NCBI GenBank assembly: GCA_031835245.2
Contig: JAVKOQ020000067.1
Span: 1-64,000, forward strand
Reading direction: 5' to 3'
Length of the DNA stretch: 64,000 bases
From: Balamuthia mandrillaris
Lineage: Eukaryota
Below, one piece after another: positions 1 to 19,962 of this stretch; positions within the stretch are counted from its first letter, which is position 1; every line of letters begins with the position of its first letter. A model generated the notes under the pieces. It was not told where the DNA came from and ran no database searches. It saw only the letters and a program-made list of their open reading frames with translations. The position numbers and the translations under genes are program-made.

Positions 1-2311
<2,311 letters not shown>

Positions 2312-6640: not shown

Positions 6641-7784
6641 TCATGAGGAAGAATCAGAAGAAGAGGAAGGTGGATTCTCTGTGAGCCGTATGAGCGATGC
6701 TTCTGCATCCTTTCTGGATGGTGTTGCGGCGGCCGCTGCTGCCAAAGCGTTGCTTGTACTCGTTGCTGGTGCGGCTCTGCATTTAAAAACAAAGATGGAG
6801 AGGGGAAGAGGGAGAAGGAACGTCATAAAATTGATAGACAAAAAAAAAAGAATTCAAGTTCAAAACTTACGCTTTCTTCCGAACGCTTCCACGTTTCTTA
6901 GGAGTAACACCCACAATCGCAGATCCACTACCACCTGAAGAACCAGACCCGCCAGGCGCGGTGCTCTTCCGTGGATCCTTTGTCAAGAGGCTGTTGAAAA
7001 AGTCGGAGAGGACCTTATGCTCGCTGGGGCTACTGCCTTTGGGGCTGCCTTTGGCGGCGCTGACGGGAGTGCCAAGCTCTGCAGCTGCCTTGGAGGGTGT
7101 CATCAGGTTGATTGCACTCTCCGCGCGAGAGGTAATACTGCTGCCCTTGCTGCTTACTGGAGTTGTTGGGTTGGAGGGACGATTTGGGCGAGCCAAATCT
7201 ATAAATAGGTTGAAAAAAGCACAAACAAGCAAAAGAGTGAGATTAAAATAGCAATCACAACAACGGTGCTCAAACAAATAAAAAAAGCAAACCTTTGGAA
7301 GAAGCTTGCCGCATGGAGCTCCGTTTGGGCGTGACCGGAGAGGAATCAAATGAACTCGGCGAGCCCGGCCGCTGCGTTTCCGTCTCCTCAATAGCCTTGA
7401 GATGCTTAGCGAGGAACTCTTGGTCATCCTCGGCCAGGCTCTCCATCTCGTATTGAGAAATCTTGGTGTCCTTCATGAAAGGCAGAGGAGTGGGGATGAT
7501 CTCGTTGTAGAGGCTGAGGTCGGCCTCCCCACAGATGTTTTGGTTTTTAAAGTCAATGTCGATCTTGGCGAGGGAGTCCCAACCAGAGGGCACGAAGAGG
7601 GAGTCCTTCTCAAGAACTTGGGCGGGGGAATGGAACTCAAAGTTGTAGAGGCGGTGTTTAAGGTAGTTGAAGAGGAGGGAGCATTGGATGTTGCGTTTGG
7701 CGGAGGTGTACAGCAATGTGGCTCCATCTATGAGAGAAAGATAGAAGAGAAAATGAGACGAAAACCAAAATAAAGGAATGAAAG

Positions 7785-10935: not shown

Positions 10936-11639
10936 TTAGTTGCCATAGGGCTTGGAGTCGTAGAACGCTTTGATCTTTGGCAAGCTGGCCACCTTCTCGT
11001 AGGCAGCCTTCACCTGGGAGAAGCCCTCAAAGACCTCACGGGCGCCCTCCAGCCTGAACACAAGGTCCAAAGAGACAAAGAGGTGAACATCAGCATAGGA
11101 GACCTTGTCGCCGACGAAGAAGCCAGTGCCGTTCTTGGCGAAGGCGCGCTCAAAGTGGCCCAACCATTTGGGCAGGTCCTCGGAGAGGAACTTGGCGAGG
11201 AGCTCGGCTTTGGAGGCCTCGGGGGCAAAGATCGCCTTGATGCCTGTAGAACCAAAGTCCACCACTCCCTCATTGAACTGATCGATCAATGCAGCTTCTG
11301 TTTCGTTCGCGCCTGGAAAGAAAGATTGATGAGTTTGACGAAGGATGAAAACAAAAAACGGATAGTACCATTGAAGCCGTGTTTCTTGGCAAGGTAGCGA
11401 GCGATGGCGTTGCTTTGGACAAGGTCCAGACCCTCGGGCTCCTGGTACCGGGGCACCTGGCCAAAGGCCAGCTCCTCTCCGTGCTTGCTCTTGTACTCGG
11501 CCCAGTCGCCGCCAGCGGAGCCCTTGAAGGAGAAGCCAACCCACTCGTAGTCCACCCCAGCGAGCTCGAGGAGCAAGCGAGGGACCTCAGCGCGGCCGGG
11601 GACGTTGAAGTAAGTGAGCGTTGGCTTTTCGACGGACAT
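10936..11639 (-). CDS. Glutathione S-transferase (sigma/alpha-like; one intron at ~11314-11367)
   Basis: LTYFNVPGRAEVPRLLL, FGQVP, LVQSNAIARYLA, FFVGDKVSYAD, LPKIKAFY. Confidence 0.93.
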
Positions 11640-12777
11640 TATGTGTGTGTGTTTGTTGCGGTTGTGTGGAGGCGAGAAAATGGTGGAAGAAGTGAGAAAT
11701 ATCTAAAGCCTGAGCAGAGGAGCTCATTTGTTTAATGAGAGTCATTAGGAATGCTCCGATAGGTTCCTATTGGTTTGTTTTAGGCTACAACGGAGGATTA
11801 AAGAGGTTAGAATTCACCGACGCGGAGGAGGAGGAAAACGGCAGCAAACGTGCAGTTCTTCTGCAGGGTGAAAAGCGCGGCTGACGTCATGGGCTACCCG
11901 AAGAGGTCCCGCTTTATTGTTTTACTGACGGTGCATCATTCTGCGATGACCTGTCCGTTTTCACTGCGGCAAACGCTTGACCGCCGCTATGGGTCAACTT
12001 GTTTTTCGTTTGGGCTTCTGTGGGCTTGAGGCAGCCTATTTCGCCAGGGCGAGGCGACGCAAAATCGAGATGTTCGCAGAGGAGTGAGATGGCTCGGTGC
12101 TCTGCCGAAAAAGCAAGAAAACAGAAGGGTATCCTCGAGCTGCTGGGCTACGAAAAGGCAGATGAACCAGGGTCACCCGACAATAAATACAAGAGAATCA
12201 GCGAAAAGTAATGCGATTTATTCAAATTCGTCGACAATCCGAGTTTTTTGTCCTTTTGCAGATTTATCCGAAATTCCGGGATCGCCGGAAGTTTCCTTAT
12301 TCGCGCGAATTATCCTTTTTTAGGCAAAACCACGCGACATTTCCTGCTCTTGTCCCCATTGGTATCCAAAGGGGAGGCGATGGAGGTGAGAATGAGGACC
12401 CGCTGGGGGTCGTGCGTGTGAAAAATAGCAAAAGAAACGGAAACGGAGGTGCTGGTTTTTTTTTTTGCCTGGAGGCGCCCATTCCCGTCAACGACAACGG
12501 TAAAAAAAACTACAAAATAAAAAGGGGGTCGGGGGGGGGAAGACAGATACTTCCTCGGGAAGGAGGAAAAAGAACAACAAGGTTCGTTTTGTCTTCGTCA
12601 TTGTTGCTTGTTGGCGAGGAATAACACCCCCCTTTTCCTCTCCCCTTTTTTTTTTTGGGATATTTCACCTAGAAAATAATTGCCATGGAAACGGGGTTTG
12701 TAGATGTTGGATAAGCGTCGACACCTTCCCTTTTTAGAAAAAAAGGAGGGGTCTACAAAATTATTCTCAGGAAAAAA

Positions 12778-13290
12778 ATGGAGCTGCACGAGGTGAAGGA
12801 GGAAAAGAAAGAAGAGAAAGCTGTTTTCACGCGCGAGAAACAGATTTGCGAACAACACTTTGTTTTTTCTATCCCCATAAACGCCTCTTTCCCTTTGTGG
12901 TATGGAGAGTTCGCCATCATTCCCAATTCTGTACTTTTACGCATGTTTCAGGAGCTCCTTCTTCCAAAGTTGTTGCCTTTGGTTTCAGTCAAGCCAAAGC
13001 CACTTCCTATCAAGTGTGCTGTTCGCTTGGATCACGACCTTCATAAATTAATCTTCGGTAGCGCCAAAGAGGTGTTCCTCAACGAAGCACAAATCAACCA
13101 AGTTTTTGGTGTTTCTATTCGCCTAAACCTCAAAGGCGGATGTTATGCCCTCCTTTGTGCTCCAATCAAAGTTGCACGAAAGAACAAGAACAAAAACACT
13201 GTGTTAGAGGTGAATTATGAAGTTTACAACAAATATGACGTCCTTCAATGGCCAGAACACTGGGTTTGTTTTCCTCCCTTTAGTTCTTGA
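12778..13290 (+). CDS. Hypothetical 170-aa protein, convergent partner of the RAG1-like transposase
   Basis: Uninterrupted ATG-initiated ORF with non-repetitive, globular-looking composition; no family recognised. Its stop (13288-13290) abuts the inferred transposase stop (13291-13293, minus strand). Confidence 0.6.
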   Translation: MELHEVKEEKKEEKAVFTREKQICEQHFVFSIPINASFPLWYGEFAIIPNSVLLRMFQELLLPKLLPLVSVKPKPLPIKCAVRLDHDLHKLIFGSAKEVFLNEAQINQVFGVSIRLNLKGGCYALLCAPIKVARKNKNKNTVLEVNYEVYNKYDVLQWPEHWVCFPPFSS

Positions 13291-16195
13291 TCATTCTTCT
13301 TCTTCATCTAACTCATACTCTTCTGCATCTGTTTCCTCTTCTTCCATAGTAAAACTTGCATCATCCTCATCACTGTTCTCCGCCTCAGCCATTGCCTCCG
13401 CCTCGACTGCTGCCTCCGCCTCGATCGCTGCCTCTGCCTCTGCCTCGATCGCCGCCTCTGCCTCCGCCTTGACCGCTGCCTCCGCCTTGACCGCTGCCTC
13501 CGCCTCGACCGCTGCCTCCGCCTGACTCCCGCCTCACACTGGCTAAGTTTCCGCCTTCAATCCGCTGCCTCCGCGACCGCTTGCCTCCCGCTTTGACCGC
13601 TAAGCTCTCCGCCTTTCGACCGCTGCCTCCGCTCGACCACTGCCTCCGCTTTGACCGCTGCTCCGCTCGACCAAGCGCCTTCCGCGACGCTGCCTCCACC
13701 TCGACTGCTGCCTCCGCCTCGACCGCTGCCTCCGCCTCGACCGCTGCCTCCACCTCGACTGCTGCCTCCGCCTCGACTGCTGCCTCCGCCTCGACTGCTG
13801 CCTCCTCCTCAACTGCTGCTTTTATACAGTATTTCCTCCAAAGTTCTGGGGCTGTTTCCAACGTCTCTGTGCTCCAATTTTTTTTTTGAGCTTTTGTTGT
13901 TCGTTGTCTCTTCCTTGGTCTATGAGGAAGTGTTTGCTCTGCTGCATAGTATTCAGCACGAAATTCAGCTGTCAATTGTTGGTAAGTAGCATTTTTAGCC
14001 CCTGAACCAAGATGATATCCACTTGTTTTTTTCTTTTTGTTGAGGAAATGCTTATTTTCAATATCATAATTAGCAAGCTTTTCCAAGCATCCAAAGCGTT
14101 CAAGGAAAAAGCCAAAGTGGTATACAAAGATATGGATATAAGGAGTAACTTCTGGGTCTCGATAACGTTCAACAAAGGCCTTACCAAAAGGTCGAGCCTC
14201 CTCTAACCACTGTTGAGCTGTAATTTTGACCTGTTTTCTTTTGGTAAATATATCTTTCTTTCCTTTGCTCTCCTCTGCTCTGCTTTCCTCTTCTCTTTCT
14301 TCCCTCTCCTCCCCTCTCCTCTCCTCTTTCCTTTTCTTCACTTCTTACCTTTGGTTCCATTGTTAAAGCAGCAAGATGTGTAAAGAGATTCCAAATTAAA
14401 CGAGTGTTATTCACCTTGGTTTGCTTTCTTGCTTTGTCTGTTCCTTCTCTAATCACTGTTTCAAATGTTTTGAAAAACTCCTCACGTTTCTTTATAATAT
14501 GAAGATACTCTGCTCGATTAAACTTTGCCTTTTTTACCCGTTGAGCCATTGTGACAAGTTTTTTGCTCTTGTTTGGAAGTTTTAGCTTTAAACTGCAAAA
14601 TATAGTTTCCCATTGCATCTCAAGGTTTGTGTTTCGTCCTACATCTTCACTTAATAACTCAAGTAGTTTCCTCATAATAGCCATAAATGCATGTAAATTG
14701 CATGGCACTGTATGTTTGAGGTCAAAGTTGAGAAGGCGCTTTCCACTAATTCCATAATAAGTTCGTGCAAACTCTTTTTTTTGTGATATTGAGAGTTCTT
14801 CTGCTATATTTCCAAGTTCTTGCATCAACTCTTCATCACGAAAGGGCCAATTACTTATATCAAAGTTTGCTATTTCATCTTTTGTTACTAGGCACCATGG
14901 GCATTTAAACTTTGACTTTGGATGAAAGCAAGAATACATTCCAACAAACTCAACTAGTGCTTTGAGATCACAGACAAGCACAGGCTCTAGTTGGTACTCT
15001 TTTCCTCCTGCTGTTATTGTTGCTCCATTAATCAACTCATTAATTGTCTTTGTTGCTTCTTTTAACTCAGTTCTAAGCTCTTGTCTATTTTCTTCTCCTT
15101 CAAAGACAATATATTGATGTGCATTCTTGCCTGACTTCGTTATTTCAAGGGTATACTCTTCCAAAATAAAGCTAAAGGTACCAACTTCATGACAACGCTC
15201 TCTTCGATTTGTCATAATTGCACCATCCCATGCAAACTTCACTATTAACTTTTTGTTCACTTCACTTTTTGGAGGATTGTTCTCAAGAATCCAGCTCATA
15301 TATTTCAATAATGGAAATTCCCATCCATGTCCACCCACTGTAACCTGTGGCTCCATAATAGAGTTCACCACTGCTTTTTGTCGTTGGATATGATGCAATG
15401 AAGCTGAATCATCAAGTCTAAAAACAGACATAGTATAGTTCCAATGTTCATCTGTAATCAGGGAAGTGTCCTTATAAGCAAGAAGCACCTCTAGTGTTGG
15501 CTGTGGTAAGTATGCTTTTAATTCTTCCACATTTTCTTGCAAAAATCGAATAACAGAGGGATCTGCTTTTACTATCTCTGCCACAGTTGCACCAAAGCTT
15601 TGATAAGGAGCTAAGCAATGAAGAAGGGCCTTCGCTTTATCAACAAAGAAGCTTTTTTCTCTTTGATCTCTGTGAATAATTTCCTCCCAAGGTATTGTCT
15701 ATTGTTTGTGTTATACAAGTGAACAAAAACAAAATAACAAGGGGAAATGAACCTGTAAATGTGCGTTGAGTTCTTTTATATCCCCTTCTCTCTTTTTTAG
15801 TCTGTTTTGTGCTTCTTCTTTACTAACTGCTTCCAATCTTTCTTTATCTTTTTTAGCTTTGGCATTTGTTGCTATATCCACACAGCGTTGACAGTCATCA
15901 GTACAGTTTTGATGGTATGTATGAAGTTCATGATATACACATGCACTTTGGGAAGAGTATGAATTCTTACAACCATTGGTGTGCTCACATGCCCAATTAC
16001 CAACAGTTGCATTACCAGTTCTCTTTCCTTCCAACTTAGCACATATAGAACAGGTTTGTGGGTTACAGCTGTGCCCTTTTTTTTTTTCTCATGCTTTGTC
16101 CTACTACCACTAGTCTGATATTGTACTCGATCTGCAGAAGCAGTGAGATTACAACAACTCTCGTGGCGACAAGTGAACGTCCTTTCTTCCTCCAT
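13291..16195 (-). CDS. RAG1/Transib-like DDE transposase with N-terminal Cys/His zinc motifs (introns ~15701-15752 and ~14231-14348; frame breaks at ~16080 and ~13520-13690)
   Basis: Ordered motifs KFAWDGA (~15225), EGEE, LVCDLKAL (~14968), FKCPWC (~14895), PCNLH (~14695), TPYIHIFVYH (~14135), NYDIENKH (~14058). These parallel the RAG1 core motifs SCDG, GYDEK, CTLC, DALH, YFHKTLAH and SEGNES. Confidence 0.75.
13385..13815 (-). repeat. 18-bp coding minisatellite (EAAVEA-like units), degenerate in the middle
   Basis: Repeated GCCTCCGCCTCGACCGCT units on the + strand, in the transposase C-terminal tail. Confidence 0.85.
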
Positions 16196-17147
16196 CTTTT
16201 GTTTGTCCGTTGTGTAAAAAAAAAAACGGCCACCTTAATTAATTTGAGGAGGTCCAATTTCTACAAAAGCTTGGACCTCAGTTTTTATGCCGCGGGCAAA
16301 CGCTGCGCCAGCAGGAAAAAAATAAAGGGTAGCCCCTCATGTAGAAATTGGATAACTTCAGTGTAGTTATTTGCAGTACATGTTGTCCAACAAGTGAAAA
16401 AAATTGCCAACAAGAACAACAACAACAAAATATCATTCACTTATTTCTGGGTTGAGTTGACCCTGTTGGCCAAAACTAAAACGAAAACTCATTCCCGTAC
16501 AAGACAACACCAAACGTAACCTGCCCACCCACCCCCCCACCAAACAAAAAGGAACGTGTTTCTTAGTCAAACAACCCAGCTACAAATATATATACGACCC
16601 AGCAACCAACCCCCCACTCCAACCCGCCTACCTTCGTTTCTTTTTATTTAGTTTTTTTAATACTTCTTTACACCAAAACCCTCCTCCTCTTCCTCCTCTC
16701 CGTCGGAACAAAACTTTAAAAAAAAAAAGCGTAGCAACAACAACTTGACTTTGCTACGTTTTTTTCTGCTGCCTTATTTTTTGGGGTTTGTTTTTGTTTC
16801 TGAAGGGAAAAGCTACCACTGCCATTCACCTGCACTGCCCCCCCCTCTTCCCCTCTCTCCTCAACCCAACCCCTACACACACACCAACAACAACAACAAA
16901 AAAACCCCCAAAGAGAGAGAACAGAGAAGAGGAGAGAGAGAGAGCAAAGGAGAACAACTACTCAGTACCTCTCCTCTTTTATTTTTTTGTTCTCCTGGAT
17001 AAAAAGGTATCGTATGTTAAACCAAAACAAAAACATAAAACAGAACAGAACAAAATCCCCCCCACACGAACCTTCGACTAGACTTTGACTCACCAAAAAA
17101 CAAACAAACACGAAAACTTTATTTCAGGACATCAGGAGAAACATCAA

Positions 17148-19962
17148 ATGCACCATCGAGCGCCTGCTGGAACTCCTCCTCCGACTTCTGCCAATGCCAA
17201 CACCAGTGCTTCCGCCTCGCTCTTTTGCGCCTCCGCCACTTTGTCGCCGGTCAACCATCGGGCAACAACGGGTCTACCTTCCCAACAACCCCAACCCCAG
17301 CCTGCTGCTTCTTTCCTAGGGGAGCTTCAACGGCCAAACGCTTCTTCTTCCTCTTGCTTCTCCTCGCCTCCCCAATCCCTACGACAGTCCACCACCTTGC
17401 CCCCCCTTTCTCCTTTGAACGTGAACCTCGGCATGAGCCTTAACTTGCCTTTGCCCTCCTCTTCCTCCTTTTATTCCCCTTCTTCCTCAACGTTAACTCC
17501 GCCTTTTGAGGGTGCCGTCCAGCCGTCCAACAACATGTCATATCCCCATTTTCCTATTGCTCCGTCCTCTTCTCGCCCTCTTTGTTCTTCCACAACGGCG
17601 CCTACCTCTCTCTCTTCTTCTAGAGACGGAACGAGCTGTTCCCCTGCCAGCAGTTCGGGACTTCTCAAAGGCAAAACCTTCTACCTCGATGTAACTACTG
17701 CATCCCTCAGACAGCAGCTGTGCGCGCAATTGTGCTCTCTTGGCGCTGTTCGTATCCCCTTTCTCTCTTTTTCTCTCTCTCTCTCTCTCTCTCCGCCAGC
17801 AATGACTAACCATTATTTCTCTCTTCCACATCTGGAAAACAGACTGTCCATCCTTTCTTCTCCGACGCGGTGTCTCATATGATAACCGACCGCCACATTT
17901 CTTCGGAGGAGAAACGACAGATCATACAACAAAACCAACAACTTGCCGCCGGTCGGTCCGCCTCCTCTGAGAGATCGGGCGTTTCTCCGCCGCTATCTCC
18001 TCCATCCACCTCCTCCTCTTCCTCCTCTTATCCGTGCAGCAGCGCTGCCAACGCCAACGAAGGTTGTCCTTCTCCACTGTCTTCCGCCTCTTTCTATCCT
18101 CCTACCGATCGATCCAACGCCTCCGATCCCGAATCCAATGAAAGGTTTGTCCTCTCTCTCTCTCTCTCTCTCAATGTTTCTCTAGTGGTTAACATATTTT
18201 TCTTTCTAAAACACAGTTCACTAATCTCCCAACTTCGAAGCCTGAAGAAGTCTCATCTATCTTCTTCTGCCACCACAAAGAGATCCTGTCCTCGCCAACA
18301 ATCCACTAAAACCTTAAGCCCTTCCTCTTCCTTTTGTTTTCCTCCTTCGCCAGCTTCCTCGTGTACTTCTCCCATGTCGTTTCCTCATCACCACCTTCAG
18401 CGGATCCTCAATCCTTCCTCTTTGCCGCTACCATCTACCAACCACAATGTTGTTTCTGCTCCTTCGGGCTTGGCCCTTATCGGCTTGGCTTACAGCCTCA
18501 ACAAAAAGATTTACCATGTGAACAGTATCCTTTTCAACTGTCCTTATTTTCTTCCCTTCCTTAAGTTTCGTTTTCGCTCGTTCTTTCTCTTTCTTGTTTG
18601 TATTAGCCTTACATTGTTTTACTTAAAGAATTTCAACCGTGGTTGGATAAACACTGTTCGGAGCTCAAATCAACAACTACGGCAGGCTTTCCTCATCTTC
18701 AACAGCATTCCCAACAAAGAGCTTGTAATAACAAACTCCAACTTCAAATGCCATCTCAACGTTGTCTTCAAGCTTCTTCTGCTCCTTCTTCTTCAGGTGT
18801 TGTGCCAACATCGTTGCTGGGAGCAGACCCCATCTCCATTATTGCCGGCTCTCCTTGTCTTGCGCCTCCTCCCATTTCCATTCCGATTCCCATTTCCATG
18901 CCTCATTCTTCGACCCCAAACCTTCTCCAAAACGACACCATTCAGCAACGACAGCGACAACAACCGCAACATGCAGGTTGTGCTTCTTCGTTGGAACAAC
19001 CTTCTCTTCGTTTTCCGTTTGATCTTCGGCCAAAAACCAAGTACATCATGGTTGAAGGTTCGTTTACTTTTTAACAAAACCATTTACTCTTATAGTAGTA
19101 ACACTACGAAAAAAATAGATTTAGAAGGAGCGTTCAAACCGATTTGCAAACACTTTACTTGTGATGGAAGTTCCGGCTCCGAGGTTCCCACTCTCAACTT
19201 CAACGCCCCTAAAGGATGCTCTCCTTTCACTTCCTCTCCCTCCTCCTCTTCTGCTGTGGATAGAAGAACAACTGCAATCACCTCTAATTTAAACAACAAT
19301 CGATCCGCACCTTCAGTTCTTCTCCCTTCTCCAACTTCACCTTTTCTTCAAAATGACAACCACTTCTCAGCGACACCAACAATTTCATCGTCAGTAAAAC
19401 GGAAACGGAAAAAGACGGATACAACAACAACATCAAAGAGAAAAAAGAGGAGCATCAACAACGGACAAACGTCAACGAGCAGCCTCTTCTTCGCGTTGTC
19501 CTGTTGTTATTGTATTAGATAGTGAAGAAGAAGAGCAACAAGAAAGCAAGAAAGAAGCAGAACAGCAACAAGAAGAAAACGAAGCAGGAGAAGCGACGCT
19601 AGCAAGTGCCTAACAGCCCTTCTCTTCCTTGTTTTCGACTTCCGCCTTTGGTTCTTTCTTCTGCATCTTCTTCGCGTTGTCCTGTTGTTATTGTATTAGA
19701 TAGTGAAGAAGAAGAGCAGCAAGAAAGCAAGAAAGAAGCAGAACAGCCAACAAGAAGAAAACGAAGCAGAAGAAGCGACGCTAGCAAGTTGCCAAACAGC
19801 CCTTCCCTACCTTGTTTTCGACTTCCGCCTTTGGTTCTTTCTTCTGCGGCTTCTTCCTCATCACCTTCGTCATTTGTATCTTCTACAACACTCAACAATG
19901 GTGGCGGTCAGCCGTGGAGCCTGCATCTGCCTCCTCCCTTTGTACCCATCATCAACGTTTAA
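17148..19962 (+). CDS. DBF4: Dbf4/ASK-like Cdc7 regulatory subunit (motifs N and M; low-complexity, multi-exon)
   Basis: Motif N/BRCT-like: LKGKTFYLDV...LCSLGA..PFFSDAVSHMITDR. Motif M: KYIMVE|DLEGAFKPICKHF...PTLNFNAPKGCSPF. No motif-C zinc finger was seen, and the 3' end is uncertain. Confidence 0.6.
19485..19848. repeat. Tandem duplication of ~181-183 bp
   Basis: TCTTCTTCGCGTTGTCCTGTTGTTATTGTATTAGATAGTGAAGAAG... begins at both 19485 and 19666; the first copy has single-base deletions relative to the second. Confidence 0.9.

Follow-up and report, generated by a model that had tools for sequence, protein, structure and literature searches.

The element and its mobility

The contig JAVKOQ020000067.1 of Balamuthia mandrillaris, analysed over its first 64,000 nucleotides (the window), carries what is probably a recently mobile DNA transposon with two genes. 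The element is 3.7 kb long, has short CAC..GTG ends, and encodes a transposase whose core is predicted to be of the RAG1/Transib type together with a conserved 162-aa partner that belongs to no known family and is likely to be accessory. The first-pass annotation of this DNA had described the transposase; the ends of the element, its mobility, and the second gene were not included.

The bounds of the element were established from four runs (X1, X2, X14, and X5) aligned to positions 12000-17000. An empty allele is present in record 13 of X2, which joins 12664 directly to 16364, and the same joint is found in X14 (listed as 12632-16364). Two foreign flanks are found before 12669 (X14 and X5) and one behind 16359 (X14 and X2), where the loose ends consist of TAGTG followed by flank and other copies terminate in the inverse of CACTAGAA. 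A derivative that skips 13167-16237 has kept both ends (X14 and X1), a 1,900-nt piece from X2 differs from the window element by one change and one gap, and proteins of the same element are found on three different NCBI contigs (P0002, P0167, and P0169). Other copies, for which the first-pass annotation had proposed a search, are represented by the foreign flanks, the deleted derivative, and the further NCBI contigs. Some samples have the element at this site and others lack it, and it is a recently mobile DNA transposon. Single-contig depths in X2 are 11.9 for the flank, 5.6 for the empty allele, 23 for the interior, and 36.5 for the end, depth being no copy number; a heterozygous site and several near-identical copies are suggested. 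The empty allele could instead be an excision scar, though its joint gives back a normal intron of 86 nt. Several runs have loose ends in common within the element, and these (13378, 15639, and 14956-14987) point to copies with other insertions or truncations.

The ends in the window, CACCTAGAA and CACTGAA, are each one base off the 8-bp repeat of other copies, and have the 5'-CA..TG-3' termini of the CMCT/RAG1 clade. Because the net insertion is 12665-16363 and the termini are CAC..GTG, one T has been duplicated, as judged from a single filled and empty pair at an AT-rich target. A 2-bp duplication at this site would require one deletion and one insertion, and a 5-bp duplication the loss of four bases. 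No target duplication was seen at the related loci L001 and L002, which start at the same CACTG terminus, L001 also ending in its inverse. End-to-end alignment of the element found only the 8-bp terminal repeat and a 15-nt subterminal match, with no heptamer-spacer-nonamer arrangement and no long terminal inverted repeat (TIR). The 64-kb window has three copies of a 13-nt motif, all within about 110 nt of the element ends, and this is a candidate protein-binding site. ATAATTG[AC]C, which L001, L002, and the window element have near their ends, is not confined to the ends in the window (5 matches, of which 1 is at an end) and may be a weak lead to a shared end motif. CACAGTG at 13197-13203, considered as a recombination signal sequence (RSS) heptamer or end, was rejected as it lies inside ORF2. 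A blind search of the metagenome loci for pairs of TIR and target site duplication gave chance-level lists, in which only the 5' ends of L001 and L002 and the 3' end of L001 are credible.

Of the 28 C>T or G>A differences listed for the divergent copies of X14 and X1 (among 40 of 238 rows), 16 are CpG positions, the background share being 54 of 497 C sites; the observed/expected ratio of CpG is 0.45 within the element and 0.78 elsewhere. Together these figures suggest CpG methylation of the transposon copies.

The transposase

Ten motifs of the transposase lie in order from 16171 to 14050 on the minus strand, over three exons. These start, in the N-terminal part, at 16171 (CRHESC), 16073 (HSC..C..C), and 15989 (CEHTNGC) and, in the core, at 15230 (WDG), 15098 (GEE), 14972 (CDLK), 14903 (CPWC), 14699 (NLH), 14140 (YIHIFVYH), and 14065 (DIENKH). 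The spliced gene and motif order read in the first-pass annotation are borne out at every position, the join of intron 1 being matched by P0002 and that of intron 2 by full-length relatives such as P0003, the basis here being these proteins and not RNA. Exon 2 is an open frame of 450 codons, and the catalytic core is without stop or frameshift.

In the window assembly, the reading frame is broken within the first Cys/His cluster by an 11-A run (16077-16087). This is most likely an assembly error, since X1 and X2 carry one more base there (at 180.3 of 180.3 and 23 of 23 depth) and P0002, which otherwise differs from the window at 1 of 252 residues, reads through. The repetitive acidic tail noted previously exists as an 18-nt tandem array, but it is split over three frames in the window and is not a family feature, 3 of 11 tails examined being acidic, all from one sister family. 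Its middle is probably inflated or noisy assembly, because an X2 contig joins 13712 directly to the last tail part, leaving a much shorter repeat array, and X2 and X14 have zero depth at 13503-13669.

A search of cluster representatives with exon 2 found 277 representative proteins at E<=1e-3; as these match and the residues are conserved, the similarity is not due to chance. Conservation was assessed in an alignment of 85 rows (A1), counting rows that have a residue at the column. The first D is conserved in 53/56, the equivalent of E350 in 59/63, the second D in 54/54, and the last E in 26/30; the zinc-type residues are conserved in 67/68 and 61/63 (C) and in 33/38 and 31/34 (H). Window residues D306, E350, D392, C414, C417, H631, H636, and E656 all fall in columns conserved at 87-100%, so that the intact D/D/E residues and four zinc ligands proposed from the single sequence hold across the family. 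We take these to correspond to RAG1 D600, E662, D708, C727, C730, H937, H942, and E962. The presumed counterpart of RAG1 R848, whose placement is unreliable, is R in 31 of 46 rows aligned by eye, and no claim is made for it. The spacing from second D to E is 264 in the window and 236-278 in relatives, compared with 253 in RAG1 and 206-214 in classic Transib (PMC1131882).

The window exons, searched as single sequences, have no significant match in Pfam or the PDB. Atlas ranked RAG1 first for exon 2 (0.97, 203/256 features), with a recognition value below the bar of the tool, the neighbours being RAG1, unnamed animal clusters, and DUF1280. A profile of 85 family sequences had BbRAG1L as its sole PDB match (E 1e-5), and in this alignment the CxxC, the H after C/D, the HxxxxH pair, and the final E are in register. 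The structural model used was that of P0003, a full-length sister 51% identical to the window protein, with a predicted local distance difference test score (pLDDT) of 90. The Foldseek comparison that had been called for places RAG1 (E 1e-14), BbRAG1L (1.6e-10), and HzTransib (2.9e-9) at the top, ahead of the P element (3.7e-4). VIA aligned model residues 223-704 on RAG1 460-1007 (Z 26.4, root-mean-square deviation (rmsd) 4.4, 451 aligned), with Z of 24.1 for BbRAG1L, 23.7 for HzTransib, 13.6 for the P element, 10.5 for ISCth4, and 9.1 for Hermes. The match to HzTransib spans its residues 21-500, up to its C-terminal tail. Identity in the structural alignments to RAG1/RAGL is 12-15%. One VIA row reaches model residue 153 on RAG1 408, a hint in the model of a nonamer-binding-like region. 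The RNase H fold with a DDE triad and a large insertion is present in the P0003 model, and C(2)C and H(3-4)H lie after the second D and ahead of the final E as CPWC and HIFVYH, both as in the CMCT/RAG1 clade. The transposase core is predicted to have a RAG1/Transib-type fold from the dimerisation to the C-terminal domain.

The double Cys/His N-terminus is distinct, as had been claimed, its first cluster spanning the assembly frameshift. The module is found in 29 of 174 collected proteins and in 0 reversed controls, and may resemble a C2H2 finger with four extra ligands. The Cys/His spacing of P0002 residues 9-105 fits none of the RAG1 N-terminal motifs quoted in PMC1131882.

Relatives and host range

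Twenty relatives were looked up, of which 7 are named: six from Balamuthia and one from Planoprotostelium fungivorum. The named relatives support the protist host suggested in the first-pass annotation, as do P0002 and P0167, which their source assigns to Balamuthia mandrillaris. Balamuthia has at least four further transposase families at about 25-50% identity (P0003, P0006, P0008, P0020, P0039, and P0013), and a quick family tree, limited to the family and with long-branch warnings, puts the Balamuthia families at several places among environmental relatives. Some of the Balamuthia relatives are wrongly listed by NCBI as myosin or caldesmon. The relative P0005 has a C48 peptidase domain of the Ulp1 type fused at its C-terminus (E 9e-19). 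No relative was found in viral contigs or prokaryote genomes (0/17 and 0/10 pattern matches confirmed), nor was there a match in BFVD at E<=0.001.

The partner gene

The partner open reading frame, ORF2, was sought after conserved reverse-strand coding was seen in L001 and L002. Its intron (13264-13349) is spliced in X12 and X5, from two studies, and the product is exactly the annotated 162-aa protein P0169. Convergent ORF2 homologues lie downstream of the transposase at 6 of 11 related loci, representing five distinct elements (L001, L002, L004, which is a remnant, L005, L010, and L011); L003 and L006 end too early to judge. The homologues are 22-34% identical, and leave-one-out profiles recovered every omitted member among 2,655 ORFs (E 3.5e-26 to 1e-43).

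The model of ORF2 (pLDDT 74, 10 rows) is a small mixed alpha/beta domain. It has no match in Pfam, PDB sequences, or Foldseek, which does not show a new fold, and no clear match in VIA (best Z 4.3, rmsd 2.8, 75 aligned) or Atlas (best 0.75). A resemblance to SWIB domains, which was also considered, found no support. Identity with RAG2 was rejected: 162 aa are too short for a six-bladed propeller, the model is mixed alpha/beta, and no kelch or PHD Pfam match was found in 10 ORF2 members. It is likely that ORF2 is an accessory factor of the transposase; a role as cofactor has about an even chance. At L005 a fragment resembling Tet/JBP-like 2OG-Fe dioxygenases lies directly upstream of the partner gene (6658-7014, minus strand; PF12851, E 0.001, below the curated cut-off), and the two are fused in one gene call (P0172).

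RNA and the host locus

No run that contains this stretch is recorded as RNA, yet the X12 and X5 contigs, from two studies, are spliced. Eleven plus-strand joints are present in X12 and at least 5 of these in X5, and the RNA has no further long ORF. At least some X5 RNA is from another copy, since its first piece starts in foreign flank. The GT..AG joint of the host intron at 12579-16365 has a depth of 61.9 in X12 and 81.4 in X5; its source may be the empty allele, or the element may be spliced out as a whole. In 3-5% of the data of three raw RNA runs from a different strain, no reads lie at 12657-16424, which is not evidence either way.

The host gene downstream of the interrupted intron occupies 17148-19500 (plus strand). 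Its unspliced ORFs have no Pfam match, and a stretch at 17660-17750 presumably resembles the BRCT-like N motif of Dbf4. A glutathione S-transferase gene at 11286-11702 (minus strand; GST_N, E 7e-8) is divergent from the element-containing transcript.

Table 1. Positions of the element, its genes, and the associated introns in the window
Feature	Position	Strand	Remarks
Whole element, 3,698 bp, CAC...GTG termini	12666..16363		Empty allele, foreign flanks, junction sequence
Terminal repeat, transposase 3' side, CACCTAGAA	12666..12674	+	One C more than other-end repeat of other copies
Terminal repeat, transposase 5' side, CACTGAA in window	16357..16363	-	CACTAGAA in two other copies
Subterminal 13-nt motif (candidate protein-binding site), copy 1	12699..12711	+	Further copies at 16340-16352 (+) and 16253-16265 (-)
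Partner gene ORF2, 162 aa after intron removal	12778..13263	+	Convergent with transposase; intron 13264-13349; stop 13350-13352
Transposase exon 1	15753..16195	-	Two Cys/His zinc-finger-like modules (residues 9-52, 70-105) and coiled helix
11-A run breaking the reading frame	16077..16087	-	One base longer in runs X1 and X2; P0002 reads through
Transposase intron 1	15699..15752	-	54 nt, GT..AG; identical join in NCBI protein P0002
Transposase exon 2	14349..15698	-	450 aa, with a helical region, the dimerisation domain, and the RNase H fold (predicted)
Exon 2 acidic residues	D306 (15227), E350 (15095), D392 (14969)	-	Numbering assumes P0002 frame
Exon 2 zinc-type residues	C414/C417 (14903/14894), CxxH 481-484	-	Numbering assumes P0002 frame
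Transposase intron 2	14231..14348	-	118 nt, GT..AG; relatives continuous across it
Transposase exon 3	13291..14230	-	H631/H636 (14134/14119), catalytic E656 (14059), C-terminal helix, then acidic tail
18-nt tandem-repeat acidic tail	about 13378-13820	-	Frameshifted in window
Eleven GT..AG introns, 56-131 nt	13264..16137	+	RNA starting in ORF2, antisense over whole transposase gene
Host intron holding the element	12582..16366	+	Upstream of plus-strand host gene; 86 nt in empty allele

Classification and alternative explanations

Like RAG1 and RAGL (BbRAG1L, PDB 6b40; mouse RAG1, 4wwx and 6xnx; AanRAGL, PMC9435367), the transposase has a predicted fold covering RAG1 460-1007 (Z 24-26), the order D/E/D/E and then CxxC and HxxxxH, and a similar D-to-E spacing. 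Two convergent genes between CAC termini is also the ProtoRAG layout of BbeRAG1L/2L given in PMC10629977. In contrast, while a convergent second gene is present, it encodes a 162-aa alpha/beta protein and not a RAG2-like six-bladed kelch and PHD protein; the N-terminus has two small Cys/His modules where RAG1 has H-x3-L-x3-C-R-x-C-G and RING; and the ends have no RSS-like bipartite structure. Transib (HzTransib, PDB 6pqx), as described in PMC1131882, resembles the element in its 3-4 kb size, transposase of about 700 aa, CAC termini, and non-autonomous derivatives. Unlike Transib, the element has a conserved second gene, zinc modules at the N-terminus, a wider spacing from D to E, 8-bp repeats in place of RSS-like TIRs of ~38 bp that include heptamer and nonamer-like parts, and, at the one site measured, a duplication of one T at an AT-rich target in place of 5 GC-rich bp.

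The CMCT lineages (EnSpm/CACTA, Chapaev, Mirage, ESTA, Plavaka, and Lanisha), which were compared by their description in PMC12730594, share the C2C and H3-4H motifs that follow the second D and precede E, termini of the form CA..TG, CACTA-like ends that carry subterminal repeats, and, in a relative, Tet/JBP cargo. The duplication at the single filled and empty pair, where the window junctions may contain consensus errors, is shorter than the 2-5 bp reported for them, and the partner is unlike any named second gene. The best match to RAG1 does not fix the lineage, because, in the same text (Kojima 2025), the zinc motifs are common to all CMCT lineages and ESTA was found by an HHpred match to RAG1. 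The element fits best as an unnamed, amoeba-expanded lineage within the CMCT/RAG1 clade, and not as Transib or RAGL proper; Transib membership is not established. Of the RAG1/Transib/Chapaev kinship first proposed, the RAG1/Transib-type fold stands, while the lineage is placed only within CMCT, the 8-bp repeats and 1-bp duplication being un-Transib-like.

If the element were Transib proper (Subgroup I-like) or sister to the RAGL transposons, its short repeats and the duplication of 1 bp would be artefacts of error-prone assembly. The whole-core structural match to RAG1 and HzTransib, a D-to-E spacing near that of RAG1 and above classic Transib, the 3.7-kb size, the CAC termini, and the single-base departures of both window ends fit such an origin, which is nevertheless unlikely: a 5-bp duplication would require four bases to have been lost at the window junction, neither a heptamer-spacer-nonamer nor a long TIR is present, Transib is single-gene, and the target is AT-rich. 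There is likewise a low probability that the element is of the CMC type (EnSpm/CACTA, Chapaev, ESTA, or Plavaka-like) and that RAG1 tops the fold search as no CMC structure is among the matches. The CACTA-type termini, subterminal repeats, two genes, short duplication, shared zinc motifs, discovery of ESTA through RAG1, and the Tet/JBP fragment in a relative, as in fungal CMCT elements, are what such an element would have; the 85 members have no match to the CACTA, Plavaka, or KDZ Pfam families, among 25 of 28 families listed at E<=0.05, the Atlas neighbours are those given above, and the window N-terminus has no Chapaev/RAG1-type motif of the pattern in PMC1131882.

A domesticated, fixed host gene of transposase origin could have introns, an intact core, and a location within a host transcript, but is very improbable. 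It is largely refuted by the empty allele, and several flanks, deletion derivatives, decayed copies, and several unrelated multi-copy families in the same species speak against it as well. A closer question is whether the partner lacks any physical part in transposition, being passive cargo or an anti-silencing factor. This has a probability somewhat short of even, as the fold and family searches gave no match that points to binding of DNA or the transposase, and Tet-like cargo lies beside the partner in a relative; position and orientation kept at 22-34% identity across five distinct elements are unlike passive cargo.

Several observations weigh against the recently mobile two-gene transposon with a RAG1/Transib-type core. 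The 1-bp duplication, from one site whose junctions possibly contain consensus errors, is outside the 2-5 bp of CMCT, and no sense-strand transposase splice is found among the 13/13 and 15/25 joints of two listings. As assembled, the window copy has a frameshift, and the end of P0002 immediately precedes a CGA codon (15383), where another copy may have a nonsense change. The sequence resemblance to RAG1 is weak, PF12940 being matched by 1 of 85 members (E 0.02), and a second, exon-2-anchored profile reaches BbRAG1L at E 0.027 only. The fold model is that of P0003 and not of the window protein. L007-L009, which are one truncated element, have no partner gene.

Proposed mechanism and significance

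It is likely that the transposase moves the element by cut-and-paste. By analogy with RAG1/Transib biochemistry, a transposase dimer would hold both ends and nick at the CAC terminus, the flanks would be left as hairpins, and the element would insert elsewhere by strand transfer; dimeric nick-hairpin excision and strand transfer are described for RAG/Transib in PMC10629977. Recognition of the subterminal 13-nt motifs, replacing that of an RSS nonamer, may be the task of the two N-terminal zinc modules. The partner may bind the transposase or the ends, with chances about equal to those of silencing evasion, and partner RNA reading through antisense over the transposase, together with CpG methylation, may keep the transposase low. 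It is possible, but rather doubtful, that this is a still-active, amoeba-expanded sister lineage of RAG1/Transib that arrived independently at the ProtoRAG layout, with an obligatory small new-fold cofactor replacing RAG2, and whose 8-bp ends and 1-bp duplication would define a new CMCT superfamily with a different target geometry.

The bearing on the origin of V(D)J recombination drawn in the first-pass annotation was overstated. Tao et al. (2022, PMC9435367) had already described non-animal RAG1-like and Transib elements, with RAGL in Aureococcus and proteins resembling Transib in bacteria, fungi, and plants, and no RAG2 is present here. Amoebae are called minor hosts by Dupeyron et al. (10.1101/2021.09.26.461848), where 35 Transib transposases were recovered. 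No report of a RAG1/Transib-like element in Balamuthia or Amoebozoa was found in the literature covered, Repbase and subscription journals being outside it, and six amoebozoan names are not found in the available supplement text of PMC9435367, figures excluded.

The hosts of RAG1-fold transposons are extended to Amoebozoa (Balamuthia and Planoprotostelium), and RAG1-fold transposons in protists are no longer rare. The element alone does not move the origin of V(D)J recombination, with no RAG2, no RSS-like ends, and no tree, and its bearing is indirect. If the 1-bp duplication is real, the RAG1 fold would be able to engage its target in a geometry other than the 5-bp one of RAG/Transib. If the partner is a cofactor, a RAG1-type enzyme and a convergent second gene would have been paired more than once, RAG2 being one solution among several. 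Since recently active copies are available whose ends are defined, together with an empty site, the element is testable.

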